Below are positions 347-37,353 of a stretch of 64,000 nt of DNA, piece after piece. The notes below the pieces were generated by a model. That model was given only the letters and a program-made list of their open reading frames with translations, did not search any database and was not told where the DNA came from. Source of the DNA: an uncultured Candidatus Saccharibacteria bacterium. GTDB lineage: Bacteria > Patescibacteriota > Minisyncoccia > 2-02-FULL-40-12. The stretch is from assembly GCA_964368135.1 (NCBI GenBank), contig CAYIZI010000002.1:16241-80240 (forward strand), read 5' to 3'. Both the position numbers and the translations under genes were made by a program. Numbering within the stretch: the first letter of the stretch is position 1; the number at the start of each line of letters is the position of its first letter.

Positions 347-1627
347 ATGTCAACAATCAATTTGAAAAACAAGAAGATAGCTATTTTAGGGCTGGGCCGC
401 GAGGGCTCGGCCACTTTAAAGTTCCTCAAAAAAAATAAAATAAAGGCGGATGTACTGGATTTAAAACTTGATAAAAATTATGCTGATCAAATTAAAAATT
501 ATGAGGTTATTTTCAGAACTCCGGGCTTTCCCCGGCTCCATCCCGGGCTTTTGACTGCAGAAAAAAACGGAGTAATTATTTCAAGTCATATTAAATTATT
601 TTTTGACTTATGTCCGGTAAAAATTATCGGCATTACCGGCACCAAAGGAAAAACCACAACTGCCTCTCTGGTTTATCAGATTCTAAAAAGCAGGTACGGG
701 AAAAAGGTATTTCTTGCCGGGAATATCGGTGAACCGGCCTTGGATATTTTGCCAAAGCTGAAAAAAGATTCCCTGATTGTCCTTGAGCTTTCAAGTTTCC
801 AGCTTCAGGATTTATACAAAAGTCCTCACGTAGCTGTAATTACCAATGTAGCTCTGGACCATATGGATCCAGCCGGAAAATTTGCTCCGGCCACTCATCA
901 AACCGCCAAAGAATACTTTGACGCTAAGATGAATATTCTAAAACATCAAAAATATGGGGATTTTGCCATAATCCATCCATCGCTTAAAAAGAAAACTAAA
1001 AATGTAGGCCAGGGTAAAAAAATATATCCCACTCCCCTGCCCTTAAAAACCAAACTAATTGGTAGACACAATTTAGAAAATATTGCTCTGGCCGCAGCCG
1101 TCGGAAAAATCTTTAAAGTGCCGAAAAATAAAATTCTAAAAGCCGTTGAAAATTTCAAAGGCATTGAGCACCGGCTTGAATTTGTCGCTAAAATTAACGG
1201 CGTTTCTTTTTATAACGATTCGGCCGCCACCAACCCGGACGCGACTTTGACAGCGCTAAAATCATTTGAAAAACCAGTTCACTTGATTTTGGGCGGCTCG
1301 GATAAAGGATTAGATTATAAAAATTTAATAAAATATATTGCCAAAGCCAAAAATATTAAGACCGTGGTGCTTATTGGACAGATAAAGAATAAATTAAATA
1401 AATTATTAAAGAATTACGAATTACGAATTACGAATTTAAAGACCAAAAGGGTTAAAACCTTAAAAGAAGCTGTATTGACTTGTTTTAAAAGTAGTGGTAG
1501 AAATGAGGTGGTCCTTTTGTCTCCGGCGGCGGCGAGTTTTGATATGTTTGCCAACTACGCCCAGCGCGGGGATGAGTTCAATAAAATCGTAAACAGAATG
1601 GAGGAGAGAAATGCCCGGAGTAAATGA
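347..1627 (+). CDS. murD: UDP-N-acetylmuramoyl-L-alanine--D-glutamate ligase
   Basis: 426 aa. Has the Mur ligase ATP-binding motif GITGTKGKTTT, an N-terminal Rossmann segment (KKIAILGLGREG) and the Mur ligase C-terminal domain. Carries an in-frame (AATTACG)3 insertion encoding NYELRITN near the C-terminus. Confidence 0.9.
   Translation: MSTINLKNKKIAILGLGREGSATLKFLKKNKIKADVLDLKLDKNYADQIKNYEVIFRTPGFPRLHPGLLTAEKNGVIISSHIKLFFDLCPVKIIGITGTKGKTTTASLVYQILKSRYGKKVFLAGNIGEPALDILPKLKKDSLIVLELSSFQLQDLYKSPHVAVITNVALDHMDPAGKFAPATHQTAKEYFDAKMNILKHQKYGDFAIIHPSLKKKTKNVGQGKKIYPTPLPLKTKLIGRHNLENIALAAAVGKIFKVPKNKILKAVENFKGIEHRLEFVAKINGVSFYNDSAATNPDATLTALKSFEKPVHLILGGSDKGLDYKNLIKYIAKAKNIKTVVLIGQIKNKLNKLLKNYELRITNLKTKRVKTLKEAVLTCFKSSGRNEVVLLSPAAASFDMFANYAQRGDEFNKIVNRMEERNARSK
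1412..1436 (+). repeat. heptanucleotide microsatellite (AATTACG)3AATT, copy 1 (inside murD, sense orientation)
   Basis: Exact 25-nt string AATTACGAATTACGAATTACGAATT read directly on the + strand. Confidence 0.9.
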
Positions 1628-1904
1628 TCGTATTGTAATAGTCTTCCCCTCTGATTGGTCGGCTGTTGAAGTAATTAAAATCGTCTACGACTTTGAAAAC
1701 ATTATCCGGAAGGAACGAACTGTTTTCAAAGACCTGGGTGATCGGCTTAGATTTACCCTGTTCCTCAATAGACCCGATACGTCAGACGAAGGAGAGGCGT
1801 CAAGATATGTAAACTTGGCATATGAGTTTACAAACAGGCTGTTCGAAGCCGGCTGCGAATTGATTGAAACAGATATCGCCGACTTCCGCGTCTCGACCGC
1901 CTGA
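1611..1904 (+). CDS. hypothetical protein (97 aa)
   Basis: ORF overlapping the murD 3' end by 17 nt. GC is intermediate; no recognisable motif. Confidence 0.35.
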   Translation: MPGVNDRIVIVFPSDWSAVEVIKIVYDFENIIRKERTVFKDLGDRLRFTLFLNRPDTSDEGEASRYVNLAYEFTNRLFEAGCELIETDIADFRVSTA

Positions 1905-1956: not shown

Positions 1957-2835
1957 TTACTTTTTATGCAACACCATCAAAATAGGACTGGCTACGAATA
2001 TAGATGAATAAGCCCCAGAAGCGATTCCGATAATTAAAGCTAAAGAAAAATTTTTCAAAGTCGGACCGCCGAAAATGTAAATCGCAATTACGGCAAAAAG
2101 AGTAGTTAAGGTCGTATTTATAGAACGGACTAAGGTTTGTTTAATACTCCGATGAACTGTTTCGTTAAAATTCCCTGAAGGATTTTTAAAAACATTCTCT
2201 CTGATTCTATCATAAACCACCACCGTATCATTGATTGAATAACCCAAAATGGCCAGGGCCGCGGCAATCATTGGCGCGTCAATCTGAACCCCCTTGAATA
2301 GACCGAGTAAAACAAAAACTCCGATCGGTATTAATAAGTCGTGGATTAAAGCGATAACTGCACCCAAGGCCAGAACAAAAGGACTTATCACCCCGCCGAT
2401 TTTTCTAAAAACAACGGCTAAGTAAGCTGAAATTAAGAGCAAAGCCGCTACTATCGCAATAATGCTTTTTCTTTTTAGTTCCGCGCCGATAGTTAAACCG
2501 ATTGAATCAAACCGTTTTTCCTCAAGCTCGCCCAATTGATTTAAACCATTTAAAACTTCCTGATGTTTTTCTTCCGAAATCTCCGGCATCCTGATTAACA
2601 ATCCTTTCTCACCTGCCTGTGAAATTGCCGCATTTGTTATTCCTTCTTTTTCTAAAATCTCTCTTATCCTCCCTAATTCGTAATTCGTAATTCGTAATTC
2701 ACTAAATTCTGCTTCTAACAACGCTCCACCAGTGAAATCAATCCCTAAATTCAAGCCGTAAATCAAAAACACCGCCAGAGAAGCGAGCATCAAAATAACC
2801 GAGATTGAAAAGAAGATTTTGTAGAGAGTCAGCAT
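1957..2835 (-). CDS. secF: protein translocase subunit SecF
   Basis: 292 aa. Has an N-terminal TM segment, a periplasmic domain, and the C-terminal six-TM SecD/SecF/RND-like bundle (GLNLGIDFTGG...). Size fits SecF rather than SecD. Contains copy 2 of the (AATTACG)3 repeat encoding ELRITNYEL. Confidence 0.85.
   Translation of the reverse strand: MLTLYKIFFSISVILMLASLAVFLIYGLNLGIDFTGGALLEAEFSELRITNYELGRIREILEKEGITNAAISQAGEKGLLIRMPEISEEKHQEVLNGLNQLGELEEKRFDSIGLTIGAELKRKSIIAIVAALLLISAYLAVVFRKIGGVISPFVLALGAVIALIHDLLIPIGVFVLLGLFKGVQIDAPMIAAALAILGYSINDTVVVYDRIRENVFKNPSGNFNETVHRSIKQTLVRSINTTLTTLFAVIAIYIFGGPTLKNFSLALIIGIASGAYSSIFVASPILMVLHKK
2675..2699 (-). repeat. heptanucleotide microsatellite (AATTACG)3AATT, copy 2 (inside secF, sense orientation)
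   Basis: The + strand reads AATTCGTAATTCGTAATTCGTAATT, which is AATTACGAATTACGAATTACGAATT on the secF sense strand. Confidence 0.9.
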
Positions 2836-2902
2836 AAAGTAATTCTATCATATAAAATTTTGCCGCCGACATCCATACTGAACGCCGGCGGCAACGAAAG
2901 TG

Positions 2903-3688
2903 CTAAACCTTGCTGTTTTTCGGCTGATACCAGAACAAACCTCCTTCTGTGGTCACTGTGAAATCACCGAAGAGATGAGGATACCGTTTGGTGACGATTT
3001 CTCCCACCTTACCGAAAACGAGACGAATTTCTTCTTCGGCGGTCGGGTGAGTCCGCATTTCCAGAATCCATCGAATGGTCCGCGGATTGGCTGACCAGCC
3101 GATGGTCGTAGCCAAACCGATTGGAGCGATTCGGCGCATCGCCGAGGTGATGACCTTCTTAACATGAAAAGGAACTCCCGAATCGTCAAGGCGGAAAAGT
3201 TCGGCAAGCTTGATCTGAAGTCCCTCCAAATGACGGAATGTCTCGCCGAAAACCTCAACAGCCTGCTCGTTTTCACGAATGACCGTCGGCAGCCACTGAC
3301 CAAGATCTTCGAGCCGCACAAACCGGAGGGACTCCTGGGAAATGGCTACGCCGGCACGATGCCGTACGAGTTCGTGAGTGAACACCCGCGAAACGTCGAC
3401 AAAAACAAAGTTCATCACCGGATGCTCGATGACCGAACCGTGCTTCACGTTCAAAATGTTCCCAAGGTAGTCGCTGTTGTGCTCACGAATCTTGGTGACG
3501 TTCCGGTTCATTCCAGGCTGGAAACTCCGATAACATAACCTGCCCATAACCTCCACCAGTTTTTCGGAGTCGGTCGGGGCATCGGAAACCCAATCTGGGA
3601 TGCCAAGATAATCGAGATAGGCCCAAAGTCCTTCTTCGACAATCCTGGTTTCGCCGACAAGGAAAACTTGCGGTTCGACTTTATGCAT
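2903..3688 (-). CDS. thyX: FAD-dependent thymidylate synthase ThyX
   Basis: Contains the ThyX signature ELVRHRAGVAISQESLR (RHR-X7-8-S motif); length about 260 aa. The start is chosen at the internal ATG at 3688, which follows a GGGGAGG Shine-Dalgarno at 5-nt spacing. The track ORF extends to 3745. High GC (>55%) unlike the flanks. Confidence 0.8.
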   Translation of the reverse strand: MHKVEPQVFLVGETRIVEEGLWAYLDYLGIPDWVSDAPTDSEKLVEVMGRLCYRSFQPGMNRNVTKIREHNSDYLGNILNVKHGSVIEHPVMNFVFVDVSRVFTHELVRHRAGVAISQESLRFVRLEDLGQWLPTVIRENEQAVEVFGETFRHLEGLQIKLAELFRLDDSGVPFHVKKVITSAMRRIAPIGLATTIGWSANPRTIRWILEMRTHPTAEEEIRLVFGKVGEIVTKRYPHLFGDFTVTTEGGLFWYQPKNSKV

Positions 3689-3863
3689 TGTCGCCTCCCC
3701 GATTTTTTTTGAGCGTAACGCAGTGGTACCATCCACCGTCCGCACCCTTTTTCAGTTCGACTTTTGCTGTCACTTCCTCTACGAGTTGGTTGCCATCGTA
3801 AATGATAACCCTGGCAGGATGATGAGAAGTGCCTACTTCTTGTTCAAGTTCAACCTTTACCAT
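3681..3863 (-). CDS. small hypothetical protein (60 aa), translationally coupled to thyX
   Basis: Starts MVKVELEQE..., preceded by a GGAGGG Shine-Dalgarno. Its stop overlaps the thyX start (ATGCATAA, 8-nt overlap). Same high-GC composition as thyX. Confidence 0.4.
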   Translation of the reverse strand: MVKVELEQEVGTSHHPARVIIYDGNQLVEEVTAKVELKKGADGGWYHCVTLKKNRGGDNA

Positions 3864-3904
3864 AAACCCTCCTGGTTTTTTTGATATCATTAATCTTATG
3901 AAAA

Positions 3905-3933
3905 AGAAAGGGCGGCGCATTGCGCCACCCGAT
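3905..3933 (-). terminator. putative GC-rich hairpin between dcd and the small ORF (attenuator/terminator candidate)
   Basis: GGGCGGCGC-ATT-GCGCCACCC inverted repeat (9-bp stem, one mismatch), followed on the minus strand by TTTCTTTTTC. Confidence 0.35.
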
Positions 3934-3944
3934 AGCTCACCTCT

Positions 3945-4496
3945 TCACAGAGTCTTCTGCCCCTGGAAGCGGACCCCCTGGAGTTTATCGTAGGTACGTT
4001 CGCACTCGCCATCGAGTTCCTCAAATGACAAATGAACCATGCCCATGTCGCCATAGATTCGTATTGGGACTGGGCTGGAGTTGGCTATATGGATGCGGAG
4101 CCGACCCTCCCAGCCAGGACTGATGCTCGAGATGTTGAGGCCGATGCCGACGCTGGAGTAAACAGTTTTCCCCACGCCGTGGGCAACGCAGTTCGGCGGA
4201 ATCCGAAAATACTCCAGAGTCATCGCCTCCGCAAAACCTCGCGGAGGGATGTCGTAGTACGGAACCGCTGACTTCTCAAAGTAAAACTCGTGGTCTAAGT
4301 TTAGGGGATCAAGCGTCTTGCCAGCGGCAACGGCCCAATCAAAGACCAAGATGCGCGGATCAAGCCGGGCGTCGTAGCCGGCTGGCTGAAGACCATAGGA
4401 AATGATTCCGTCTCCGGCCACACGCTCTGAAAACGGCGCAATCATCCAGTGTTCCAAAGCCATTTTCCTAATCCACCAATCGGGTTTTGATGCCAT
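3945..4496 (-). CDS. dcd: dCTP deaminase (dUTPase-fold)
   Basis: 183 aa. Has SYGLQPAGYDARL and GWEGRLRIHIANSSPVPIRIYGDMGMVHLSF, characteristic of the dCTP deaminase/dUTPase beta-barrel family. A GGGAGGTGA Shine-Dalgarno lies 4 nt before the ATG. High GC. Confidence 0.7.
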   Translation of the reverse strand: MASKPDWWIRKMALEHWMIAPFSERVAGDGIISYGLQPAGYDARLDPRILVFDWAVAAGKTLDPLNLDHEFYFEKSAVPYYDIPPRGFAEAMTLEYFRIPPNCVAHGVGKTVYSSVGIGLNISSISPGWEGRLRIHIANSSPVPIRIYGDMGMVHLSFEELDGECERTYDKLQGVRFQGQKTL

Positions 4497-4566
4497 AACT
4501 CACCTCCCGGGTAAGCAAAGCTAATCCACCAAGAAACGAACCAAAGTTGCTGGACTTAGTGTAGGG

Positions 4567-4968
4567 TCATTTCTTCTCAAAGTCCAGACAGACCGAATTG
4601 ATGCAGTATCTCTTTCCGCCTCGCTCACGCGGCCCGTCGTCAAAGACATGGCCCAGGTGAGCCCCGCATTTTTTGCAGAGAACTTCGGTTCGATTCATGC
4701 CACCACTATAATCCGGTTTCAACTCAATATTTCCCAGATTCTTTGGCTGGGTAAAACTTGGCCAGCCAGTTTCAGAATCAAACTTGGTATCCGAAGAAAA
4801 AAGCTCGGTCCCGCAAATCGCGCATTTATACATCCCCTTTTCGTGGTGCTTCCAATACTTACCCGAAAACGGCGCCTCGGTCCCTTTCTTCCTGGCTACT
4901 TCATATAGCTCCGGTGATAGTTCTTTATCTTTTTTCACTTTATTATTTTTATTCATATTATTTCTCAT
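4567..4968 (-). CDS. msrB: peptide-methionine (R)-S-oxide reductase MsrB
   Basis: SelR domain with two CxxC pairs (CAICGTEL...CKKCGAHLGH) and the GWPSF active-site motif. Has an N-terminal low-complexity N/K-rich extension. Confidence 0.85.
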   Translation of the reverse strand: MRNNMNKNNKVKKDKELSPELYEVARKKGTEAPFSGKYWKHHEKGMYKCAICGTELFSSDTKFDSETGWPSFTQPKNLGNIELKPDYSGGMNRTEVLCKKCGAHLGHVFDDGPRERGGKRYCINSVCLDFEKK

Positions 4969-4990
4969 AGCATCTTTGAATTTATTTTTG

Positions 4991-5230
4991 TTAAAGCTTA
5001 TATGTTTTTTCGCTGCGTTTCTGAATAGTAATAATAAATATAGAATTATTACTCTTACTGAAAATGATTCTTAATCTTTCCTTGCGTAATCGGAAAATAT
5101 CCTGATAGCCTTTTAATTTTTTAATATTAAGACTATTCCAATCCAAAGAAACTATTTTTTCAATTAAAAACTCGAGAAGTCTCCTGTCATCTTTGTTAAA
5201 TTTAGAAAGTAGTTTTTTAAGAGGCGGCAT
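4991..5230 (-). CDS. type II toxin, RelE/ParE family
   Basis: 79 aa. The C-terminal KGYQDIFRLRKERLRIIFSKSNNSIFIITIQKRSEKTY fits the RelE/ParE consensus (fRlRvGdyRiiy...i.il.i.hRkd.Y). Overlaps the upstream antitoxin by 14 nt. Confidence 0.65.
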   Translation of the reverse strand: MPPLKKLLSKFNKDDRRLLEFLIEKIVSLDWNSLNIKKLKGYQDIFRLRKERLRIIFSKSNNSIFIITIQKRSEKTYKL

Positions 5231-5459
5231 TTAGCTTATGAAGCTCTCTCAAAATTTTTTTGGCATCCACACCCTTTTTATTTAGTTTAGTAAAATCAAC
5301 GACGGTTTCCCAAAATCCCTCTTCTTCGTCAACAGAAGAAATCTTAAAAAGTGGTTTTGATTTTTTTACTACAATAAAAGACTCGCCTTTTTCTATACGA
5401 GAGATATATTTTTGCATATTTTCTCTCAACTCTTTTAATCCCAAAATATTGGTTCTCAT
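5217..5459 (-). CDS. type II antitoxin, Phd/YefM family
   Basis: 80 aa. The N-terminus TNILGLKELRENMQKYISRIEKGESFIVVKKSKPLFKI is typical Phd/YefM. It lies upstream of the toxin and overlaps it. Confidence 0.7.
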   Translation of the reverse strand: MRTNILGLKELRENMQKYISRIEKGESFIVVKKSKPLFKISSVDEEEGFWETVVDFTKLNKKGVDAKKILRELHKLNAAS

Positions 5460-5467
5460 AATGCTTA

Positions 5468-5489
5468 AAGTTTATCTTAAGATAAACTT
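5468..5489. promoter_or_regulatory. perfect 22-bp palindrome (AAGTTTATCTT|AAGATAAACTT) 9 bp upstream of the antitoxin start: putative TA operator
   Basis: Read directly from the sequence. It lies in the secA-antitoxin intergenic gap (5460-5507). Confidence 0.5.
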
Positions 5490-5507
5490 GGTGTCAAGGT
5501 TCATATT

Positions 5508-8096
5508 TTATTTCCCATGACAATGTTTATACTTTTTCGGACGGCCATCCGGATGTTTCGCCCCGCACCAGCAGGGGTCGTTGCGGCCGATTTCCTTGCC
5601 TTGGGGTGATTTGTTTACGTTAACCGCGACTGACTGCGGCTGAACCGGCCGCATTTCAACACCGACTTTAAAAATCAGATTCACCACCTGATACTTTATT
5701 GACTTTAACAACCGCTCAAATATCTTTTGTCCTTCAATCCGGTATTCAACCAGGGGGTCGCGCTGGCCATAAGCCCGCAGATTAACCGAGTCGCGTAAAT
5801 ATTCCATCTGTTCAAGATGGTCAATCCAAAGCTCGTCAATTACCCGAAGTAAAACAAATTTCTCAATATTCCTTATCCCCTCTTCGCCGATTTTCTCTCT
5901 CCGCTCATTATACTTTTGTTTAACAAATTCTAAAATCCTCTGTTTTAAATTTTCTTTATTTTGAATTTCATTTAAAATTTGAAATTTAAAATTTGTAATT
6001 GTGTTTATTGTTTCCTCTATCTCTTTAAGATTCCATTCCGGCCCTTGAGTATGAACCCCAACCATTTCACTGACAAACTCGTTAAAATAATCAAAAATCA
6101 TCTCCCGGCGTTCCGGCGATTGAGAGTCCAAAATATTTTTCCGTAAACCATAAATGGTCTCCCGGTGCTTATTCATCACATTATCAAACTCAAGAACGTA
6201 TTTTCTAGCGTCAAAATGGTGGCCTTCAATTTTACTCTGGGCCTGCTCAATTGACCGGCTGACCAAATTATGCTCAATCGGCTGGTCTTCTGGAAAGCCA
6301 AGCCGCTCCATTAAGCTCTTAATTCTTTCACCGCCAAAAATCCTGATAACATCATCATCCAGAGAAACGAAAAACTGGCTTGAGCCCTGATCGCCCTGCC
6401 GACCGGAGCGGCCCCGAAGCTGATTATCAATTCTACGGGCCTCATGCCGTTCTGTCCCGATAACATGAAGTCCGCCGACTTGTTTAACTTTCTCTGCATT
6501 ATCAGCACTTGGCGGATTGCCGCCTAAAATTATATCCACTCCCCGGCCAGCCATATTGGTCGCCACCGTTACTTGGCCAAATTTACCAGCTTGGGCAATT
6601 ATCTGGCCTTCTGATTCGTGGTTTTTGGCGTTTAAGACGTTGTGAGGAATGCCCTCACGCCTAAGCATTTCTGAAATTAGTTCATTTTTCTCAATTGAAA
6701 CCGTGCCGACTAAAACCGGCTGACCCCTCAGATGTCTTTCTTTAATCTCTTCAACTAATGCCTTCCATTTGGCATCGGCGGTCTTGTAAATCCGGTCAGG
6801 CAAATTTTCTCTTATCATCGGCTTATTGGTCGGCACCACAACGACATCAAGATTATAAACCTTATGAAACTCTTCGCTTGAAGTAGCCGCGGTTCCGGTC
6901 ATTCCGGCCAATTTTTTATACATCCGGAAATAGTTCTGGAAAGTAATGGTGGCCATAGTCCGCGACTCTCTTTGAATGGCCACGCCTTCCTTGGCCTCCA
7001 CGGCCTGATGGAGTCCCTCTGACCAGCGCCGGCCGGGCATAAGGCGGCCAGTAAACTCATCAACAATAATGACTTCGCCATTTTTAATCACATAATCTTT
7101 ATCGCGCTTAAACAAAACATTGGCCCGCAAAGCTTGCTCAAGATGATGAACATAACGCATCCCGCCGTGCTCATAAATATTTCCAATCCTAAGCATTTTC
7201 TCCACCTTGTCTATCCCGGAATCGGTTATGGTTGCGGCTCTTAATTTTTCATCAACATTATAATCTTGATTTTCTTTCAAATGAGGAACAACTCTGGCAA
7301 AAGTTTTGTAAAGCTCGCCTGATTCGGTATCCGGCGCGGAAATAATCAAAGGAGTTCTGGCTTCGTCAATCAGAATTGAGTCAACCTCGTCAACTATGGC
7401 AAAGTTATGGCCTTTGGCCTGGGACATCTGACTCAAATCGTAAACCATATTGTCCCGAAGGTAGTCAAAGCCGAATTCATTATTAGTGCCGTAAGTGATG
7501 TCAGTTTCGTAGGCCTGGCGCCTTGTTACCGGCCGCAGAAACTCATGGAAAACCCTGAATGCTCCTTGGGCATCACGCATCTCATCTTTCTCGGTGTGGC
7601 CGGGGTCATAAACATAACTAGCATCATGATTAATACAACCAACAGTCAAGCCTAAGGCATTATAAATCTGTCCCATCCAAACCGTGTCGCGCCGGGATAA
7701 AAAATCATTGACGGTTACGATATGCACTCCCTGACCTGATAAAGCATTCAGATAAACTGCTAAAGTTGAGGCTAAAGTTTTGCCCTCACCGGTTTTCATC
7801 TCTGCTATTTTACCTTGATGCAAGACAATGCCGCCGATAAGCTGAACGTCAAAATGCCGCTGGCCCAAGGTGCGCTTAGCCGCCTCGCGGACCGTCGCAA
7901 AGGCCTCAGGCAACAAGTCATCAAGAGTTTCGCCTTTCCCCAGCCTCTTTTTAAATTCCTCGGTCTTTTCCTTTAGTTGAGTATCCGAAAACTCCCCAAA
8001 TTCGCCTTCAAGCTTATTTATCTTCTCAACCAATGTCTGGGCTTTTTTTAGATACTTTTGATTCGCATCACCAAAGAGATTAGATAGAAAACTCAT
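5508..8096 (-). CDS. secA: preprotein translocase ATPase SecA
   Basis: 862 aa. Has DEAD-like motor motifs (GKIAEMKTGEGKTL Walker A; DEVDSILIDEARTPLIIS) and a C-terminal zinc finger (CWCGAKHPDGRPKKYKHCHGK). Confidence 0.95.
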   Translation of the reverse strand: MSFLSNLFGDANQKYLKKAQTLVEKINKLEGEFGEFSDTQLKEKTEEFKKRLGKGETLDDLLPEAFATVREAAKRTLGQRHFDVQLIGGIVLHQGKIAEMKTGEGKTLASTLAVYLNALSGQGVHIVTVNDFLSRRDTVWMGQIYNALGLTVGCINHDASYVYDPGHTEKDEMRDAQGAFRVFHEFLRPVTRRQAYETDITYGTNNEFGFDYLRDNMVYDLSQMSQAKGHNFAIVDEVDSILIDEARTPLIISAPDTESGELYKTFARVVPHLKENQDYNVDEKLRAATITDSGIDKVEKMLRIGNIYEHGGMRYVHHLEQALRANVLFKRDKDYVIKNGEVIIVDEFTGRLMPGRRWSEGLHQAVEAKEGVAIQRESRTMATITFQNYFRMYKKLAGMTGTAATSSEEFHKVYNLDVVVVPTNKPMIRENLPDRIYKTADAKWKALVEEIKERHLRGQPVLVGTVSIEKNELISEMLRREGIPHNVLNAKNHESEGQIIAQAGKFGQVTVATNMAGRGVDIILGGNPPSADNAEKVKQVGGLHVIGTERHEARRIDNQLRGRSGRQGDQGSSQFFVSLDDDVIRIFGGERIKSLMERLGFPEDQPIEHNLVSRSIEQAQSKIEGHHFDARKYVLEFDNVMNKHRETIYGLRKNILDSQSPERREMIFDYFNEFVSEMVGVHTQGPEWNLKEIEETINTITNFKFQILNEIQNKENLKQRILEFVKQKYNERREKIGEEGIRNIEKFVLLRVIDELWIDHLEQMEYLRDSVNLRAYGQRDPLVEYRIEGQKIFERLLKSIKYQVVNLIFKVGVEMRPVQPQSVAVNVNKSPQGKEIGRNDPCWCGAKHPDGRPKKYKHCHGK

Positions 8097-8335: not shown

Positions 8336-8644
8336 TTATTTTCCAAGGTACTTCTTGATCTGACGCTGGAGTTCGTCTTTGACGCGGTTGATGGCAGTGC
8401 GCAGGTCTTTATTGGTATCAGTCGCCCGCAAGAGTTTTCCCGGCAATTTCAAATTCGCTTCGGCATACCAGACTATGCCTTTATGATGATGCCGCGATGG
8501 TTTGCCTATTTCCACCCTCGCCTCGACTGCTGTCGGGTCAACTTTTTTCAAAAACTTTTCTAAACTGCCAATTTTTTTCTCAACCCAAATAACCAATGCA
8601 TCATCTAACTTTATATTTGTCGGATTGATTTTTATGTGAAACAT
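8336..8644 (-). CDS. hpf: ribosome hibernation promoting factor (HPF/RaiA family, short form)
   Basis: 102 aa, starting MFHIKINPTNIKLDDALVIWVEKKIGSLEKF... with a conserved HHHKG. Matches the sigma-54 modulation/ribosomal subunit interface protein family. Confidence 0.75.
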   Translation of the reverse strand: MFHIKINPTNIKLDDALVIWVEKKIGSLEKFLKKVDPTAVEARVEIGKPSRHHHKGIVWYAEANLKLPGKLLRATDTNKDLRTAINRVKDELQRQIKKYLGK

Positions 8645-16407: not shown

Positions 16408-16869
16408 TCAGGTTTTGACCTCGATCCCCTCCAGATACTCCAGCCGGACTTTGCCTTCCGGCAGAGCCACCTTCACCACCATCAGATGACAAAGGTCAGG
16501 AGTAAAGTGCTGATGGGCCTGGCCGGCCGGGATGTGCAGCCAGTCACCCTCGTAAAGAACTACCTCCTTGCCGCCTTCGATGCTGTTAGCAAGGAAAGTC
16601 AGACCGTCTTTTGTCCAGGGATCCACGAGTCGGCCGCCCAGAACAAAACGAACGCTCCCCTCCATACAGAAGAACACGTCGTCCTCGTGGAGATGGACTT
16701 CGGCCGGACGATGCTCCACGTGGAGATTCCGGAGGAATCGAACCGGAAATCCTTCCTCGTACAGCTTGGCCGACCCTTCCAGTACATGACTCCCCTTTTT
16801 CTCGGGTTCCCCGTAGAATTCCCTTACCACACGTCCAAACACATGTCTGACTGGCCTCAACTCGCTCAT
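16408..16869 (-). CDS. cupin domain protein
   Basis: 153 aa. Cupin beta-barrel motifs (HxH...E, LHIPAGQAHQ). GC-rich. Confidence 0.6.
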   Translation of the reverse strand: MSELRPVRHVFGRVVREFYGEPEKKGSHVLEGSAKLYEEGFPVRFLRNLHVEHRPAEVHLHEDDVFFCMEGSVRFVLGGRLVDPWTKDGLTFLANSIEGGKEVVLYEGDWLHIPAGQAHQHFTPDLCHLMVVKVALPEGKVRLEYLEGIEVKT

Positions 16870-16885
16870 TGCGTCCTCCTTGGAC

Positions 16886-17962
16886 CTAAACCGCCCTGAA
16901 TACGAAATAGAAAGCCTGGGCCTGTGTCAGTAGATTCTTTTCTTCTTCAATCAAAGTATCTACCAGTTCAGCTTCGGCCTCCTCAATGATCTTCATCTTC
17001 TGTACCAACGGTAAATCTACCGTCGCCAAGTTGATCGGAACGATAATCGGGTAGAAGTCAACCGACCTTACAAGGGACGGCTCTTCAACCACAACTGTCC
17101 TCTCAAGATCAAACCCGGCTTGGGTGGCTAAATCCGGCATCTCGCTGACCCTGAACATTTTCGCATCCTTTGGAGCATCTCTTTTGATTGAGTGCCTCTC
17201 CATAAGAATCCTGTTTAGAATCGAATTCAGCTTGACGAAAACAGGATTATTATTAGAGCCGGATTTATTGAAATGCTCTTCCCGAGAAGGGTCAGTTTCT
17301 AAGGCAGTCACCTGGCGCGGTTCCATCACAACCAGAACGCCGCCAGTCTGTAGAAGGCTCCTTGCCTTCGACAGCACCTTCACGATGCAGCCGTCGGTTT
17401 CGGGCTTAAGCCCATCTTCTTCAAGCTTCTTCTTGAGTTGGTTGATTGGCCAATGAAGGACATTGTTGGCCACAGCCACATCAAAAAGAGTATCTGAAGA
17501 AAAAGACATCAGGGGTGAAGTCATTATCCGCAGCTTCAACGACTCCCAGAAGCTGTTCTGGCGAAACCCCCGCCGGAAAAATTTTAGGTATTCGACGGTT
17601 CTTTCAAACCGACGGCCCAAAACTTCTTTGGCCCCTTTCTGAACCAGCCATTCCTCCACGTCACCGCCTTCCAGAAGCAAAAACCCCATCATTTCGGTCA
17701 TTGCCCTGGAATTATCAATGGCGGTTATTGAGGCCGGGCAAAACCCAGAAATGGCAAAAGTAGAGGTACCATAACCGCAGCCAATATCCAGAACATCCTT
17801 GCCTCTTAAGCCGCCACTGGCAGTTTCGGCCAGAAGGGCTGAATTCTGGGATTGACGCAGATATGAACCACGAACCCAGCCTTCGACAGAATAAATGGCT
17901 GGGAACAAACCCTCAAAAAGATCGCCCTTGGGGTCGTAAGCATGGATAGGTCCTTCACTCAT
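16886..17962 (-). CDS. class I SAM-dependent methyltransferase
   Basis: Motif I VLDIGCGYGTSTF. GC-rich, in a possible operon with the cupin gene. Confidence 0.65.
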   Translation of the reverse strand: MSEGPIHAYDPKGDLFEGLFPAIYSVEGWVRGSYLRQSQNSALLAETASGGLRGKDVLDIGCGYGTSTFAISGFCPASITAIDNSRAMTEMMGFLLLEGGDVEEWLVQKGAKEVLGRRFERTVEYLKFFRRGFRQNSFWESLKLRIMTSPLMSFSSDTLFDVAVANNVLHWPINQLKKKLEEDGLKPETDGCIVKVLSKARSLLQTGGVLVVMEPRQVTALETDPSREEHFNKSGSNNNPVFVKLNSILNRILMERHSIKRDAPKDAKMFRVSEMPDLATQAGFDLERTVVVEEPSLVRSVDFYPIIVPINLATVDLPLVQKMKIIEEAEAELVDTLIEEEKNLLTQAQAFYFVFRAV

Positions 17963-18951: not shown

Positions 18952-19686
18952 TCAAGAACTTCGGACTTGTTCGAGCATCGCCACTGCCTCGGCAACGCGT
19001 CTTTTCAGTTCTTCTTCGCTGATCGGCATCTCGCCTCTCAGAAAAGAAAAAACTTCCTCGCGCTGATGAACCAGTGATTCTTGTGATTCGTCTGAAGTGT
19101 TAAGGTACAAAGGAATGTAACCAGCCGGCGGAATCTCAATCTGTCGGGCGCCACGAAGGAAACCGTCGAAGTCGAACACGCTGGCGTTGGTGATATTGCC
19201 GACGGTTTCCAATTCCCGCTGACGATAAGCAATCCGCCGCCTGACCGCCTCCAAATCGCAGTAGAAGTAGATGCATCTGAAATGTACTGTGATCGGCAAT
19301 TCCGGAATCGGTTTCCCGTCCCTTTCTGCTTCCTCACGCTCAATGGTCTGAAGGTACCAGTTGGCGCTTTCAAGCATCTCAACGAACGGCACCTGGTGAG
19401 CTTTACGAGTCAGCATCACCATTTCCAGAAACACGGCTTGAGGCCTCTCTACTATCAGCTTAGTCTTCACCTCGAATCGAGTCGCCTCGTTCTTGAAGAC
19501 GTGCTCGATCTTAACGATGTGAACGTCACTTCTCGTCGGCCAGAAGCGCTGACGGACATCGTCCATAGACACAAAAACAGCATCCTTGTACTCGGGTAAA
19601 CTCATTACCCAATTCCGGAAGAATGACTTGCCGCTGAAAACCAGACCGGAGAAAACACTGACCAAAATCACCTGATTATTACCCAT
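18952..19686 (-). CDS. P-loop NTPase/kinase-like hypothetical protein
   Basis: Walker A motif GLVFSGKS near the N-terminus. GC is intermediate to high. No further family recognised. Confidence 0.4.
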   Translation of the reverse strand: MGNNQVILVSVFSGLVFSGKSFFRNWVMSLPEYKDAVFVSMDDVRQRFWPTRSDVHIVKIEHVFKNEATRFEVKTKLIVERPQAVFLEMVMLTRKAHQVPFVEMLESANWYLQTIEREEAERDGKPIPELPITVHFRCIYFYCDLEAVRRRIAYRQRELETVGNITNASVFDFDGFLRGARQIEIPPAGYIPLYLNTSDESQESLVHQREEVFSFLRGEMPISEEELKRRVAEAVAMLEQVRSS

Positions 19687-21850: not shown

Positions 21851-23620
21851 ATGGCGAAGCTAAACGTAATCCAGCCCCATATCCACCCTTCAGAGGTGGT
21901 AAGGGGCATAACGGCAAGAGATCTTGAGGGTCTCAACGTTGTTTTCATCAATATGCCGCTTCGGGAAACGGCGCTACCAAACACCACACCCGAGGGTCCG
22001 CTATTAATGGCGACAAACCTGATTCGGAACTATGGGGTTAGTGCTTCAGTAATTGACCTCAACGCTTACCGGATTAAAGACGAGCTGGCTCAAAAACGCG
22101 GACTCCCGCGAGGCCGCCACCTGACCGAAGAAGAGGCCTTTGGTAAAATCCAACGCCATTTCCTCAAATTTGGCGAACCAGACCTTGTTTGCCTTTCAGG
22201 AATGATCACCACTCTGAAGTGGCAAAAAGCAGTGGCGGGAATGGTCCGCCGGCTGGTACCTAACACTATGCTCGTTTCTGGCGGGGGCCTGGCTACTGAA
22301 TTAAAAGTGGGACTGTTTAACTACACCCCTGAACTCGATGGAGTGGCCCACTCCGAAGGAGACGATGTCATCGTCAAAATCTGCTACGACGCGGCGGTTA
22401 TTCGGCGCCACGGCCGGCAACATGCTCTCAACTCGGGCAAGCTCGAACCCTATTTACTGCAGGACGGCTCCGGCCGTCTGATGTACGAAGGCGATCGGCC
22501 CGATGATTTGGACCGATTCCCATGGGTTGACCTTGAGCTTTTGCGCGAAGATGTTGACGGGGTCAAAATCCTTGAGCAATATCTTCAAGCCGAAGCTTGG
22601 GGACTTAGCGCAAACAACAGCTCGGCGGCACCGTTTGTAACCGCGCCGAAAACCACTTCGGTTTCTTCCCGCGGCTGTCCCTATGGCTGCAAATACTGCT
22701 ATCGGGGCGCCCAAGGAGAACGCAAGTGGCACGTGAGGTCGGCCCGCCATCTGGTTGAGGAAATGAAAGAACACATGGCAAAGTACGGCATAGCTTTCAA
22801 GAGCTGGCCGGACGACAACTTTGCGGTGACATTCAAAAGGATTAAGGAACTCCGGGATATCATTGTCGCAGAAGGCATCAAGATTCCCTGGGGAACCCAC
22901 ACTCGCCTCGACGAAGCCGGTGGCTTTGTTCCTAACTCACGTCAACCCCATCACGAGAGAAACTTCTTTACCGACTATATCTTTGAGGATCCGCTCCGGA
23001 TCAAGCTAATGGCTGAAGCCAACTGTAAGTACGTCGGCTTTGGACCAGAAAGCGCTCACCCAGACACCCTTGAAGAACTCGGCAAAGGAGGCTTCACTCT
23101 CAAGGCAGGTTTGATCCCAGTTGGAGTCAACGGCCATACCTACTACTTCCCCAAAGCCATGATCTATGGAACCAAGCACACCATGGAAGCGGGGATTCAC
23201 GCCAACATGACCTGGATCAAGTTTAATCCGGGAGAAACGCTGGAACGGCTCAAGCAGACAGTTGCCTTCATCAAATGGCAGATTGATTACTACGCAACCT
23301 TCGGAATACCGGAAGAAGCGGTGAATAAAAACATGTTCACTCTTACCTGGTATCCTGGGACGGAACTAATCAATCACCCTAAGGTGAGGTTAGAACTTTC
23401 GCGCGTCTTCGGTCTGAATTTCCAAAGGATCAACGGCAAGTGGGACCCTGTCTGCGATGAGGCGTTCTACCGGTATTGCCTGGAACTAGACGACGCCACC
23501 AAGCTCCTTCACGGCCCGGACGGCGAACCGCTGAACTTCAGCGAAATGCCAAACGACTTGGCCCTACAAATCAACGAGTATGTCAGCTCCGGCCAAACTC
23601 TTCGTATCCTGGACATATAA
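21851..23620 (+). CDS. B12-binding domain radical SAM protein (class B radical SAM-like)
   Basis: N-terminal cobalamin-binding-like Rossmann segment, then the radical SAM CxxxCxxC motif (CPYGCKYC). 589 aa. About 52-55% GC in about 33% GC surroundings. Strong AAGGAGG Shine-Dalgarno. Confidence 0.7.
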   Translation: MAKLNVIQPHIHPSEVVRGITARDLEGLNVVFINMPLRETALPNTTPEGPLLMATNLIRNYGVSASVIDLNAYRIKDELAQKRGLPRGRHLTEEEAFGKIQRHFLKFGEPDLVCLSGMITTLKWQKAVAGMVRRLVPNTMLVSGGGLATELKVGLFNYTPELDGVAHSEGDDVIVKICYDAAVIRRHGRQHALNSGKLEPYLLQDGSGRLMYEGDRPDDLDRFPWVDLELLREDVDGVKILEQYLQAEAWGLSANNSSAAPFVTAPKTTSVSSRGCPYGCKYCYRGAQGERKWHVRSARHLVEEMKEHMAKYGIAFKSWPDDNFAVTFKRIKELRDIIVAEGIKIPWGTHTRLDEAGGFVPNSRQPHHERNFFTDYIFEDPLRIKLMAEANCKYVGFGPESAHPDTLEELGKGGFTLKAGLIPVGVNGHTYYFPKAMIYGTKHTMEAGIHANMTWIKFNPGETLERLKQTVAFIKWQIDYYATFGIPEEAVNKNMFTLTWYPGTELINHPKVRLELSRVFGLNFQRINGKWDPVCDEAFYRYCLELDDATKLLHGPDGEPLNFSEMPNDLALQINEYVSSGQTLRILDI

Positions 23621-35271: not shown

Positions 35272-37353
35272 ATGTCTGACGAACGGCTTACCGTTTATCT
35301 GGCTGACCTCACCCACACCGGCCAGCTAATCGCCACTAATTTCCATCCTTTGGCGATTGGGCTGATCGCTGCCTACGCCCAAAAAACGCTTGGCGACGCG
35401 GTGGAGGTTGAGCTTTTTAGGTATCCAGAAGATCTGAAGGCCGCCCTGGAAAGACGGCCGCCCCAAATTTTGGGGTTTTCAAACTACTCCTGGAACTGCA
35501 ATCTCGCTTACGAGTTTGCCAAGCGGGCAAAACAAAAGTATCCACGGACGGTCATTGTAGGCGGGGGTCCTAACTATGGGCTCTCAAGAGAAGAACAAGA
35601 AAGGTTCTGGCGCCGCTATCCCCTTCTTGATTTTTACGTAGTCAAAGAAGGAGAAATGAGCCTAATCGAGTTGATCGGTGCCTTGACTCGATATGAATTC
35701 AATGTGGCAGCCCTAAAGAACGACGGAACGATAATTCCCAACTGCCACTACGTTCAGGGCGGCAAATTCGTCTGCGGAGAGCTTCTTGATCGCCTCAAAA
35801 GCTTAGACGAAATTCCATCGCCTTACCTCGCCGGGTTGATGGACAAGTTCTTCGACAACATCCTCATCCCGATGACCCACACCACCCGAGGCTGCCCCTT
35901 TAGATGCACTTTCTGCACCGAGGGAGTAAGCTACTTCAACAGGGTGGCGAGGCGAGCTAACCTGGGCATTCTGGCTGAAGAGCTGGAATACATCGCCCGG
36001 AGAGTCGGAACGGTCCAGGATCTGATTATCACCGATGCGAACTTCGGGATGTTCAAAGAAGACATTGAAAAAGCGAAGATAATCGCCGTCATCCAGGCAA
36101 GACACGGCTGGCCACGGCACATTCATGTTTCTGGAGGAAAAAACCAGAAAGAGCGGCTCTTGGAAGTGGCTTCGCTGATCAATGGGGCCATGAACGTCGC
36201 GGCCTCGCTTCAGTCAACCGACAAACAGGTCCTGCTGAACATCAAACGCTCCAATATCTCGGTTGAAGAGCTCAGCCAGGTTGGACTAAAAGGAGGCGAA
36301 ATAGACGCCAACACCTATGCCGAAATCATTCTGGGGCTCCCGGGCGATTCTTTGAAAGCCCACACTCAAAGTCTTCGGGATGCGGTCAATGCCGGCTTGA
36401 GCTTCCTGCGGCTCTACCAGCTGATTATGCTCTACGACACCGAACTGAACACGCCGGAAACCCGAAGGGCTTTCGGGATGCAGACGAGGTTCCGGGTAAT
36501 GCCGCGGTGCTTTGGCCAGTATCAGCTTTTCAACGAAACTTTCCCTTGCGCCGAGACCGAAGAAATCTGCGTGGCCCAGGACTCGCTCTCTCTTGACGAC
36601 TACCTCTCCTGCCGGGAGCTGGACCTGACCGTGGAAATCGTCCACAATGTTCATCTCTTCAGAGAACTCTTCGGCCTCTGTAAAAGAATCAGTTTCCCCT
36701 GGTTTGACTTTCTGCTTCGGTTCCACGAAAGACACAAAGAGTATAGCCCGGCCCTGGCCGAGCTTTACGACAAATTCAGGGAAAACACTATTAGAGCATT
36801 GTGGGTGTCAGAAGAAGAAGCTCAAGCCTATGCCCAAGAACATCTCGAACAGTATATCTCGCACGAACTCGGGGTGAACGAGCTGTTCACGGCAAAAGCG
36901 GTAGCTTTCTTCCTCCTGCAGGACCAACTACGCGAGGCGCTCTTCAAAGAAACAAAGATACTCATGCAGGAACTTGGCCAGCTTGATCCAATGATGTCTT
37001 TGTATCTTGATGAGCTAAAGGAGTTTTCAAGACTCCGGAAAGGAGACCTTCTTAAAACCGAGGTTGGTCTTGAAGGAAAGTTCCACTTTGACTTCAGGGC
37101 CATAATGAGCCGGGATTTCTGCGTCGATCCCAGTGAGTACGTACTGGATTCGCCGCTTGTCTACCATTTCTCGCATAGCAATGAACAAAGGAAAGCGATT
37201 CAAAGCTATGTCCATCAGTATGGTCTGGGAGTGGTCGGACTCGGCCGAATCCTGATGCGAGCCCATGTAAAACGGCTCTTCCGGAACGTCACCAGGCCCG
37301 GAGAGCCAATCTCAACAGAACCTTCTCAAACAATGCACGCACTAAACCTTTAA
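35272..37353 (+). CDS. B12-binding domain radical SAM protein (second, paralogous architecture)
   Basis: N-terminal B12-binding-like domain plus CPFRCTFC (CxxxCxxC); 693 aa. High GC (about 55%). AAGGAG Shine-Dalgarno. Confidence 0.7.
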   Translation: MSDERLTVYLADLTHTGQLIATNFHPLAIGLIAAYAQKTLGDAVEVELFRYPEDLKAALERRPPQILGFSNYSWNCNLAYEFAKRAKQKYPRTVIVGGGPNYGLSREEQERFWRRYPLLDFYVVKEGEMSLIELIGALTRYEFNVAALKNDGTIIPNCHYVQGGKFVCGELLDRLKSLDEIPSPYLAGLMDKFFDNILIPMTHTTRGCPFRCTFCTEGVSYFNRVARRANLGILAEELEYIARRVGTVQDLIITDANFGMFKEDIEKAKIIAVIQARHGWPRHIHVSGGKNQKERLLEVASLINGAMNVAASLQSTDKQVLLNIKRSNISVEELSQVGLKGGEIDANTYAEIILGLPGDSLKAHTQSLRDAVNAGLSFLRLYQLIMLYDTELNTPETRRAFGMQTRFRVMPRCFGQYQLFNETFPCAETEEICVAQDSLSLDDYLSCRELDLTVEIVHNVHLFRELFGLCKRISFPWFDFLLRFHERHKEYSPALAELYDKFRENTIRALWVSEEEAQAYAQEHLEQYISHELGVNELFTAKAVAFFLLQDQLREALFKETKILMQELGQLDPMMSLYLDELKEFSRLRKGDLLKTEVGLEGKFHFDFRAIMSRDFCVDPSEYVLDSPLVYHFSHSNEQRKAIQSYVHQYGLGVVGLGRILMRAHVKRLFRNVTRPGEPISTEPSQTMHALNL

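Follow-up and report, generated by a model that had tools for sequence, protein, structure and literature searches.

A Dcd-like protein with a remodelled active site encoded beside thyX at the msrB-secF junction of an uncultured Candidatus Saccharibacteria genome

Introduction

The described proteins that come closest to the one considered here are the short-type deoxycytidine triphosphate (dCTP) deaminases (Dcd) of Burkholderia thailandensis (4dhk) and Anaplasma phagocytophilum (3km3), the bifunctional dCTP deaminase/dUTPases (DCD-DUT) of M. jannaschii and M. tuberculosis, and a set of archaeal dUTPases that are annotated as Dcd (P. furiosus P45, 9ln0; Thermococcus pacificus, 8y1w). A Glu of Dcd (E. 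coli E138, M. jannaschii E145) was reportedly assigned the catalytic role by Johansson et al. 2005, and the titles of PDB entries name E138A/E138D and E145A/E145Q variants of the enzyme. Archaeal proteins annotated as Dcd that lack the Glu can be active dUTPases (PMC5122711). The second enzyme of interest, flavin-dependent thymidylate synthase (ThyX), has been solved for M. tuberculosis (2af6) and C. glutamicum (3fnn, 3ge9), and synthesis of deoxythymidine monophosphate (dTMP) belongs to the minimal repertoire of groundwater Patescibacteria (PMC12455944). Here we analyse a 1.65-kb segment, the islet, in a 64,000-nucleotide (nt) stretch of contig CAYIZI010000002.1 (the window) from an uncultured Candidatus Saccharibacteria bacterium. 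A gene for a Dcd-like protein, a 60-amino-acid (aa) open reading frame (ORF60) and thyX lie there between msrB and secF. The insertion is in itself ordinary; the rewired clade to which the Dcd-like protein belongs is the one element that is not.

Results

The Dcd-like protein scores 62 bits with PF22769 and 96 bits with TIGR02274, for which the cutoff is 92.8. Its AlphaFold2 model, with a predicted local distance difference test score of 91.4, has 4dhk and 3km3 as its top Foldseek matches at template modelling scores of 0.83-0.90, and on this basis we are confident that the protein would adopt the Dcd fold of the dUTPase superfamily. The resemblance to these two short-type enzymes extends to length, to 35-38% identity, and to the phosphate-binding and C-terminal lid residues.

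The active site is a different matter. We aligned the protein to solved Dcd structures with phmmer, and to E. coli Dcd with MAFFT and a hidden Markov model (HMM); the S111/R115/E138 numbering of the E. coli enzyme is reproduced correctly. In these alignments S111 of E. coli, which with R115 belongs to the GRSSxxR motif, becomes T111 in the window protein (T in 37/39 clade members), and R115 becomes S115, the Arg being lost in 36 of the 39 members and kept in 3. Asp128 of the E. coli DPGW motif, which is probably equivalent to the catalytic Asp of dUTPase (Dut D90), is replaced by S126 (N in 23 members, H in 14, S in 1 and A in 1), the position being E in the closest canonical relatives. The presumed catalytic E138 becomes H136, and His is found here in 38/39 members. 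In addition, V136 of E. coli is replaced by R134, a new Arg that stands two residues before H136 on the same strand. Compared with the short-type enzymes, the window clade differs by S111T, A114S, R115S, E128N/H/S, T134R, E138H and a two-residue DW insertion, such that the residues known for deamination are all gone. Of the other listed relatives, 196 have the S-R-E residues. Positions for triphosphate binding and the lid (in Dcd, K/R110, Y171, K178 and Q182) are conserved within the clade, where K110, Y113, Y169, R176 and Q178/Q180 are found, and residues 115 and 134 covary (Fisher p=0.023), those members that keep R115 mostly having no basic residue at 134.

As judged from these alignments, the Dcd-like clade is not a canonical dCTP deaminase, its catalytic residues having all been replaced. 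A preliminary description of the window had named the gene dcd and considered a standard or a bifunctional dCTP deaminase/dUTPase, a reading that does not survive the replacement of every catalytic residue. The bifunctional DCD-DUT enzymes and the canonical Dcd of Candidate Phyla Radiation (CPR) bacteria (relatives are given here by locus labels: L008, L020, L015) share with it the slot in an rplK-dcd-tmk-thyX gene order, but they keep S, R, D128 and E138, whereas the window protein keeps none of these; Dcd of the L020 type has no tblastn similarity to it at 1e-4. The archaeal dUTPases 9ln0 and 8y1w are alike in belonging to a Dcd branch without the catalytic Glu. They nonetheless retain Ser, Arg and the catalytic Asp of DPGW, for which the window clade has N, H or S, and they carry a hydrophobic residue at 138 where the window clade has His.

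Homologues of the Dcd-like protein form about 40 clusters at 50-78% identity, which are from Patescibacteria, after which identity drops to about 42% in Armatimonadota and Chloroflexota. When 1.84 billion cluster representatives were searched, the clade came down to about 4 clusters at 50% identity, a small group known to date from Patescibacteria alone. NCBI annotates members as 'dCTP deaminase' (MEK7125175.1), and the TIGR02274 score lies above its cutoff. The gene orders of relatives place the variant in a familiar setting. The common Patescibacteria module is dcd-(tmk)-thyX, and its usual site is after rplK: L008 reads gyrB-secE-nusG-rplK-dcd-tmk-thyX-...-gatB and L020 reads rplK-dcd-thyX, each with the canonical S/R/D/E enzyme. 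L022, which reads rplK-Dcd-like-tmk-thyX, has the variant in the same slot ahead of tmk-thyX, and the NusG proteins of L008 and L022 are 93-94% identical to that of L020. Because the variant replaces canonical Dcd at the same slot in such close relatives, it may be expected to have the same role in the pathway.

Outside the Patescibacteria clade, other short-type relatives of Dcd also lack the Glu. Seven have S-R-S (P0204, P0206, P0216, P0220, P0223, P0225 and P0268), three have S-R-A (P0173, P0281 and P0311), and P0256 has S-R-H. Loss of the deaminase chemistry thus seems to be recurrent in this branch of the superfamily, as far as the residues tell.

The partner enzyme is of a known kind. 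ThyX matches PF02511 (Thy1) at 121.1 bits (cutoff 24.8) over profile positions 6-191 of 191, and its motif VRHRAGVAISQESLRFV aligns to RHRH-FSFSQLSQRFV of C. glutamicum ThyX (3ge9/3fnn) with X8 spacing, one residue longer than in the RHR-X7-S signature; the RHR...S motif assigned earlier is present. Like other known ThyX proteins it has the complete Thy1 domain, the RHR...SQxSxR[FY] motif and an HGSxxEH block. Unlike them it belongs to a distinct subfamily with a fixed length of 261 aa, very conserved in Patescibacteria, which has one extra motif residue (X8) and falls 1 bit under the TIGR02170 equivalog cutoff (86.9 against 87.9 bits); phrog_22708 is the better match. By family it classifies as a bona fide flavin-dependent thymidylate synthase, which would convert deoxyuridine monophosphate (dUMP) to dTMP. 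Its 6182 homologues align over exactly 261 aa at 73-92% identity and come from genomes named Jorgensen-, Lipton-, Terry- and Paceibacterota, WWE3 and Saccharibacteria; NCBI labels the close ones FAD-dependent thymidylate synthase. A second type of protein was seen in L026 (11391-13106; also in L027 and L028), where Dcd-like-tmk is followed by a 571-aa Thy1-domain protein and an HD-domain protein adjoins. This protein is too diverged from the 261-aa type for a tblastn match and, judged by its length, may be a tandem ThyX.

Whether the window holds a whole route is another question. By tblastn with E. coli Dut, ThyA and Tdk and with the Tmk and canonical Dcd of relatives, no dut, thyA, tdk, tmk or canonical dcd was found in the window, and the self-contained path from dCTP to dTMP that had been proposed is not demonstrated. 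Nor would such a CPR genome be newly gaining thymidylate synthesis, as had been suggested, since dcd-(tmk)-thyX is common in Patescibacteria (PMC12455944).

The position of the islet was compared with that in relatives from a metagenome scan with SecF, whose SecF proteins are 65-77% and SecA proteins 70-81% identical to those of the window. The conserved backbone is hpf-secA-(msrB)-secF-murD. Five relatives have an empty site: L030, L034 and L036 read secA-secF, and L032 and L035 read secA-msrB-secF with a gap of 4-28 nt between msrB and secF. The module is present at the msrB-secF junction in four cases, namely the window, L029 and L033 (thyX-secF, with the same terminator at the junction) and L039 (secA-msrB-Dcd-like-secF). 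The 1.65-kb insertion is real relative to this backbone, and the claim that it lies between secA and secF can be narrowed to exactly msrB-secF. msrB is a backbone gene, which adjoins secF in L032 and L035 and marks the upstream edge of the islet. The arrangement was assembled on a 97,952-bp contig from Hainich groundwater (ERZ1292643) and independently in at least 5 other runs; an assembly chimera is rejected, because the same arrangement occurs in at least 6 assemblies and in diverged relatives.

Two observations bear on the age of the insertion. At four-fold-degenerate sites, thyX of the window shows an identity of 0.54 with that of L029 and the Dcd-like gene one of 0.43 with that of L039, equal to the 0.37-0.56 of the flanking secF, murD and msrB. 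This equality implies that the islet was in place before these lineages split and has passed down vertically ever since. In L039 (1157-1269), moreover, the stop codon of the Dcd-like gene runs directly into the final ~45 nt of thyX (...GLPWYQPKNSKV*), with the same terminator behind them, a stump from which it follows that the L039 lineage once had the full module and deleted thyX; that lineage would have either thyX elsewhere or thymidine salvage. The lateral gain that had been described is thus not a recent event. There is no integrase among the neighbouring genes, and att-like flanking repeats were considered and rejected, the repeats found being short and at chance level. Like other small genomic islets at a conserved junction, this one shows presence and absence at one precise site and a deviant composition. 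It differs from them in having neither mobility genes nor att repeats, in being old and vertically inherited, and in its cargo, which is a lineage-endemic housekeeping module and not accessory DNA.

The islet does stand out in composition, although less than first described: GC content over 2850-4560 is 0.518, not above 55%, which places it within the top 1.2% of windows of equal length (GC of the whole window, 0.391). The sharp contrast with host genes is real. thyX (GC 0.519; GC at third codon positions, GC3, 0.588; z=4.2-4.3) and the Dcd-like gene (GC 0.549; GC3 0.636; z=5.1-5.2) are outliers against 48 background ORFs with GC 0.374 +/- 0.034 and GC3 0.360 +/- 0.053. The flanks, which had been put at a uniform 33% or so, range from 0.290 to 0.448 (Table 1). 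Given the protein sequences and host codon usage, a GC of only 0.43-0.46 is expected where 0.52-0.55 is observed, so the anomaly lies in codon choice. Amino-acid composition as its cause is rejected on the same figures and because viral homologues are encoded at GC 0.36-0.40.

Translation signals deviate in parallel. Each islet gene has a GGAGG-type Shine-Dalgarno (SD) sequence (GGGAGGTGA, AGGAGG and GGGGAGG) 5-6 nt before its start codon, as had been noticed. Among the 55 window ORFs of at least 100 aa, surveyed over the 18 nt upstream of the start, an SD is present in 6/7 of the GC-rich ones, as it is for ORF60, and recognisable in none of the approximately 48 low-GC ones. The same SD-poor pattern occurs in L008, L020, L022, L030 and L032, except for thyX and tmk; in SD-poor, low-GC hosts the SD is carried by thyX and in some cases by tmk as well. 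The block GGAGGCGAC(A/G)ATGCATAAAGT around the SD and start of thyX is conserved in L008 and L020. The ATGCATAA overlap, which had been read as translational coupling of the small ORF to thyX, exists and is 8 nt long, but it is merely the conserved Met-His-Lys start of thyX (ATG CAT AAA), and it occurs also in L008 and L020, both of which have no upstream small ORF.

The islet is not the sole GC-rich, SD-led DNA in the window. Five further genes with GC 0.49-0.56 and GC3 0.54-0.64 (16408-17962, 18952-19686, 21851-23620 and 35272-37353) encode a cupin, an S-adenosylmethionine (SAM) methyltransferase, an AAA_33 protein and two B12-binding radical SAM enzymes. All but the methyltransferase (4/5) have an AGGAGG-type SD. 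They are embedded in a low-GC glycan-biosynthesis region and are probably transferred cargo.

High GC3 follows the thyX family. It exceeds the mean of the neighbouring genes in 15/17 loci, including the usual rplK-linked site (sign test p=0.002, for loci that are not phylogenetically independent), and also does so in most GC-rich hosts; composition, on these counts, does not testify to transfer, as had been supposed. Viral homologues of the same subfamily have the GC of their own genomes, which can be as low as 0.36; a high value is therefore not dictated by the amino acids encoded. Synonymous divergence is near saturation while GC3 is still 0.59-0.68, and as a rough estimate from ~0.5 four-fold-site identity, neutral amelioration would need an ancestral GC3 of about 0.8-0.9. 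The highest GC3 among the sampled homologues is 0.80 (L012). On this estimate we favour active maintenance.

The layout of the region is given in Table 1. The coordinates and minus strand first reported for dcd, the small ORF and thyX were confirmed. A single three-gene operon is doubtful: a strong terminator (3930-3910 plus a T-run) between the Dcd-like gene and ORF60 points to two transcription units. The terminator after thyX is conserved at the thyX-secF junction in L029, L033 and L039, and murD and a 97-aa ORF converge on the secF side from the plus strand. A regulatory RNA in the spacers was rejected, there being no Rfam match at E<=1 across 2500-5600 and an unremarkable spacer fold (z=-1.6). 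A role in anti-phage defence was rejected as well, since PADLOC gave no match for the Dcd-like protein, ORF60 or ThyX.

Table 1. Features of the insertion and its surroundings, by position in the 64,000-nt window; minus-strand genes run from high to low coordinate.
Feature	Position	Strand	Remarks
hpf	8336-8644	minus	
secA	5508-8096	minus	GC 0.445
Phd-like/RelE-like pair	5217-5459 and 4991-5230	minus	weak HMM matches; GC 0.290
msrB	4567-4968	minus	SelR and TIGR00357 (173 bits) matches; GC 0.448
SD GGAGG (within GGGAGGTGA)	4503-4507	minus	6 nt 5' of the Dcd-like start codon
Dcd-like gene, 183 aa	3945-4496	minus	PF22769 and TIGR02274 matches; predicted dUTPase-superfamily fold, remodelled active site
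Intrinsic-terminator-like hairpin GGGTGGCGC-AAT-GCGCCGCCC then TTTCTTTTTC	3900-3930	minus	directly 3' of the Dcd-like stop codon
SD AGGAGG of ORF60	3868-3873	minus	
ORF60, orphan, 60 aa	3681-3863	minus	8-nt overlap with thyX start
SD GGAGG of thyX	3694-3698	minus	surrounding block conserved in L008 and L020
thyX, flavin-dependent thymidylate synthase, 261 aa	2903-3688	minus	PF02511 match
Intrinsic terminator after thyX	2860-2894	minus	16-bp stem, -29 kcal/mol, z=-4.3
secF	1957-2835	minus	backbone gene, downstream islet boundary; GC 0.387

ORF60 had been presented as a coupled gene of the module. It is an orphan, with a self-match only among 5.8 billion proteins and no Pfam, NCBIfam, PHROG or PADLOC match, and its GC3 of 0.43 is close to background. 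It may be translated, having a good SD and an ATG, and is without evolutionary support. That it could be a degraded tmk was rejected, three-frame alignments to the Tmk proteins of L022 and L008 being no better than shuffles and a nucleotide match being absent.

Short direct repeats flank or lie ahead of the Dcd-like gene. GAGGTGAG(T/C)TAT occurs at its SD and start (4495-4506) and just past its stop codon (3932-3943), and the exact 12-mer TTGGTGGATTAG lies 25 nt upstream of its start (4521-4532) and again in codons 6-10 (4468-4479). Such repeats may record the way in which the gene was joined to this site, or be coincidental.

The toxin-antitoxin (TA) pair had been placed immediately upstream of the islet and credited with stabilising it. 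msrB, which the preliminary description missed, lies between the two. The pair has the lowest GC in the region (0.29, against 0.52 for the islet) and is absent from L032 and L039, in which secA abuts msrB; L039 does carry the Dcd-like gene. It is a second, independent low-GC insertion, between secA and msrB. The HMM support for its identity is weak (Phd, E=5.5e-4; RelE-like PHROG, E=5.6e-6).

The closest homologues of both proteins are all from Patescibacteria, at 92% identity for ThyX and 78% for the Dcd-like protein. In tblastn against 50,697 phage records, the respective maxima for cultured phages were 48% and 39%. A scan of IMG/VR with the single ThyX protein gave nothing, and a profile scan of the same database gave 50 viral contigs with this ThyX subfamily, the best 72% identical. 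The best locus (L049) is a phage replication module with PolA, gp32, a RecA-like protein and Mre11/Rad50-like genes. The nearest viral relative of the variant Dcd-like clade is only 29% identical. The idea that these genes are phage cargo is therefore right for the ThyX family, but a phage is not the proximate source here, and phage origin was rejected. A source in a distant phylum fares no better, because the best matches are Patescibacteria throughout (73-92% for ThyX, 50-78% for the Dcd-like protein).

Discussion

We propose that the locus is a 1.65-kb thymidylate cassette endemic to Patescibacteria and made up of two units. The first would consist of the SD-led Dcd-like gene with its own terminator, and the second of the SD-led orphan ORF, thyX and a second terminator. 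The cassette would have been inserted at msrB-secF of the hpf-secA-msrB-secF backbone in the ancestor of this sub-lineage and inherited vertically since, with a secondary loss of thyX in one relative. ThyX would convert dUMP to dTMP. The Dcd-like protein appears to be without the Glu and Arg of deaminases and without the acidic residue of the dUTPase type, its triphosphate-binding residues being kept, and it most likely still supplies deoxyuridine triphosphate (dUTP) or dUMP from dCTP through a rewired active site (H136, R134). The high GC3 and strong SD would be maintained actively in thyX across the family, in Patescibacteria hosts that are low in GC and poor in SD sites, probably because selection favours abundant production of an enzyme that works slowly; Escartin et al. 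2008, cited in PMC10733785, reportedly claim that ThyX limits replication. Taken as a whole, with an old and vertically kept cassette, a Dcd-like supply step, and GC3 and SD shaped by selection, we hold this explanation to be probable, though by no means secure.

The part of the proposal that concerns chemistry is more tentative. The clade with T111/S115/N-H-S126/R134/H136 may have been neofunctionalised, with dCTP deamination, or another conversion of pyrimidine deoxynucleoside triphosphates (dNTPs) that feeds ThyX, carried out by a His/Arg-based site in place of the universal Glu/Arg/Asp set, and may in this way have displaced the canonical bifunctional enzyme in rplK-dcd-tmk-thyX. We put this forward as an idea somewhat short of likely.

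Several points weigh against the proposal as a whole. The distant members P0152 and P0157 stand alone, away from thyX and tmk, and the variant clade could be inactive, regulatory or active on another nucleotide. A promoter for the ORF60-thyX unit was searched for and none was found. The loci in the sign test, as noted, are not independent. The joint occurrence in the window of an SD and a high GC argues, by parsimony, for a mark of foreign origin, the other five such genes being typical transferred cargo. Finally, the contigs of the window and of the rplK-context group have no marker genes in common, which leaves shared ancestry indistinguishable from transfer or relocation out of that group.

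That last pair of points leads to an explanation which is unlikely but deserves a hearing, namely that the islet is foreign DNA from GC-richer, SD-using Patescibacteria donors and is still ameliorating, or that thyX has been replaced repeatedly among CPR bacteria, such that GC and SD would be historical and not selected. The near-perfect coincidence of GC-rich composition and SD across the 55 ORFs is what it would predict. Genomes of 57% GC that are labelled Saccharibacteria (L009, L010) have thyX genes with 87% identity to ThyX of the window, and identity is 75% across named CPR classes; the window allele nests in the rplK-context group (92.4% to L020, with L020-L008 at 89.7% and L008-L022 at 87.4%); thyX is found in many different gene contexts; and amelioration of the Dcd-like gene is complete in L022 and L040, unlike in the window. 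Set against this, the deviation is directional, with thyX GC3 above that of the host at nearly all loci and also in most GC-rich hosts, and the islet has co-diverged with its flanks. The ancestral GC3 that a donor would have to supply is, on our rough estimate, at or above the sampled maximum, and the SD block is conserved in hosts that otherwise have no SD sites.

A rather improbable alternative holds that the Dcd-like protein is a dead pseudoenzyme, for instance a deoxythymidine triphosphate (dTTP) or dNTP sensor, or has an activity unrelated to dUMP supply, in which case the module would not be self-contained. Neither carboxylate (the E138 and D/E128 equivalents) remains, and R115 is lost too; the protein occurs with neither thyX nor tmk adjacent in L023, L040, L044 and L046 (in L023 and L040, alone before gatB); and a terminator separates its gene from thyX in the window. 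What speaks for a working enzyme is that it replaces canonical Dcd at the same operon slot, that strong purifying selection acts on the clade (50-78% identity, with H136, T111 and R134 nearly invariant), that the triphosphate-binding positions are kept, and that Arg covaries between 115 and 134.

The weakest explanation, a recent islet from a phage or distant phylum that gave a reduced CPR genome a new and TA-stabilised dTMP route, can draw on the outlying composition and SD, on the five empty sites and on the 50 viral contigs, whose best member (72%) is a bona fide phage replication module, but we regard it as very improbable given Patescibacteria best matches (92% and 78%, against 48% and 39% in cultured phages), the lack of a close viral relative of the variant clade (29%), synonymous divergence equal to that of the flanks, the stump in L039, a TA pair that sits behind msrB with GC 0.29 and is missing in L032 and L039, the absence of an integrase and of att-like flanking repeats, and a minimal Patescibacteria repertoire that already includes dTMP synthesis (PMC12455944).

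The general picture, in which CPR bacteria make their own dTMP with ThyX, is unchanged by these data. They do carry a caution for method: the deviation in GC and SD would ordinarily be read as recent transfer, whereas synteny and synonymous sites show an old, vertically kept insertion. Since thyX is rich in GC3 and preceded by an SD in nearly all low-GC Patescibacteria hosts, composition does not date a transfer. Reconstructions of dTTP synthesis in these CPR lineages rest on a Dcd-like enzyme that is only predicted to be a dCTP deaminase. If the enzyme is active, it would illustrate how an active site of the dUTPase superfamily has been rewired in nature.

Additional observations

The 97-aa ORF (1611-1904, plus strand) overlaps the end of murD and has a relatively high GC, 0.46-0.47 in sliding windows. 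L030 and L031 have a weakly conserved counterpart (31-34% identity) at this position, and the ORF has no family match. In L014, a WWE3 genome, a tdk homologue (6102-6647) stands directly upstream of thyX, a different pairing for a dTMP route. Lastly, gyrB of L008 (4221-7472) matches in two blocks about 1.2 kb apart (query residues 3-460 and 444-675), which suggests that the gene holds an intein or another insertion.

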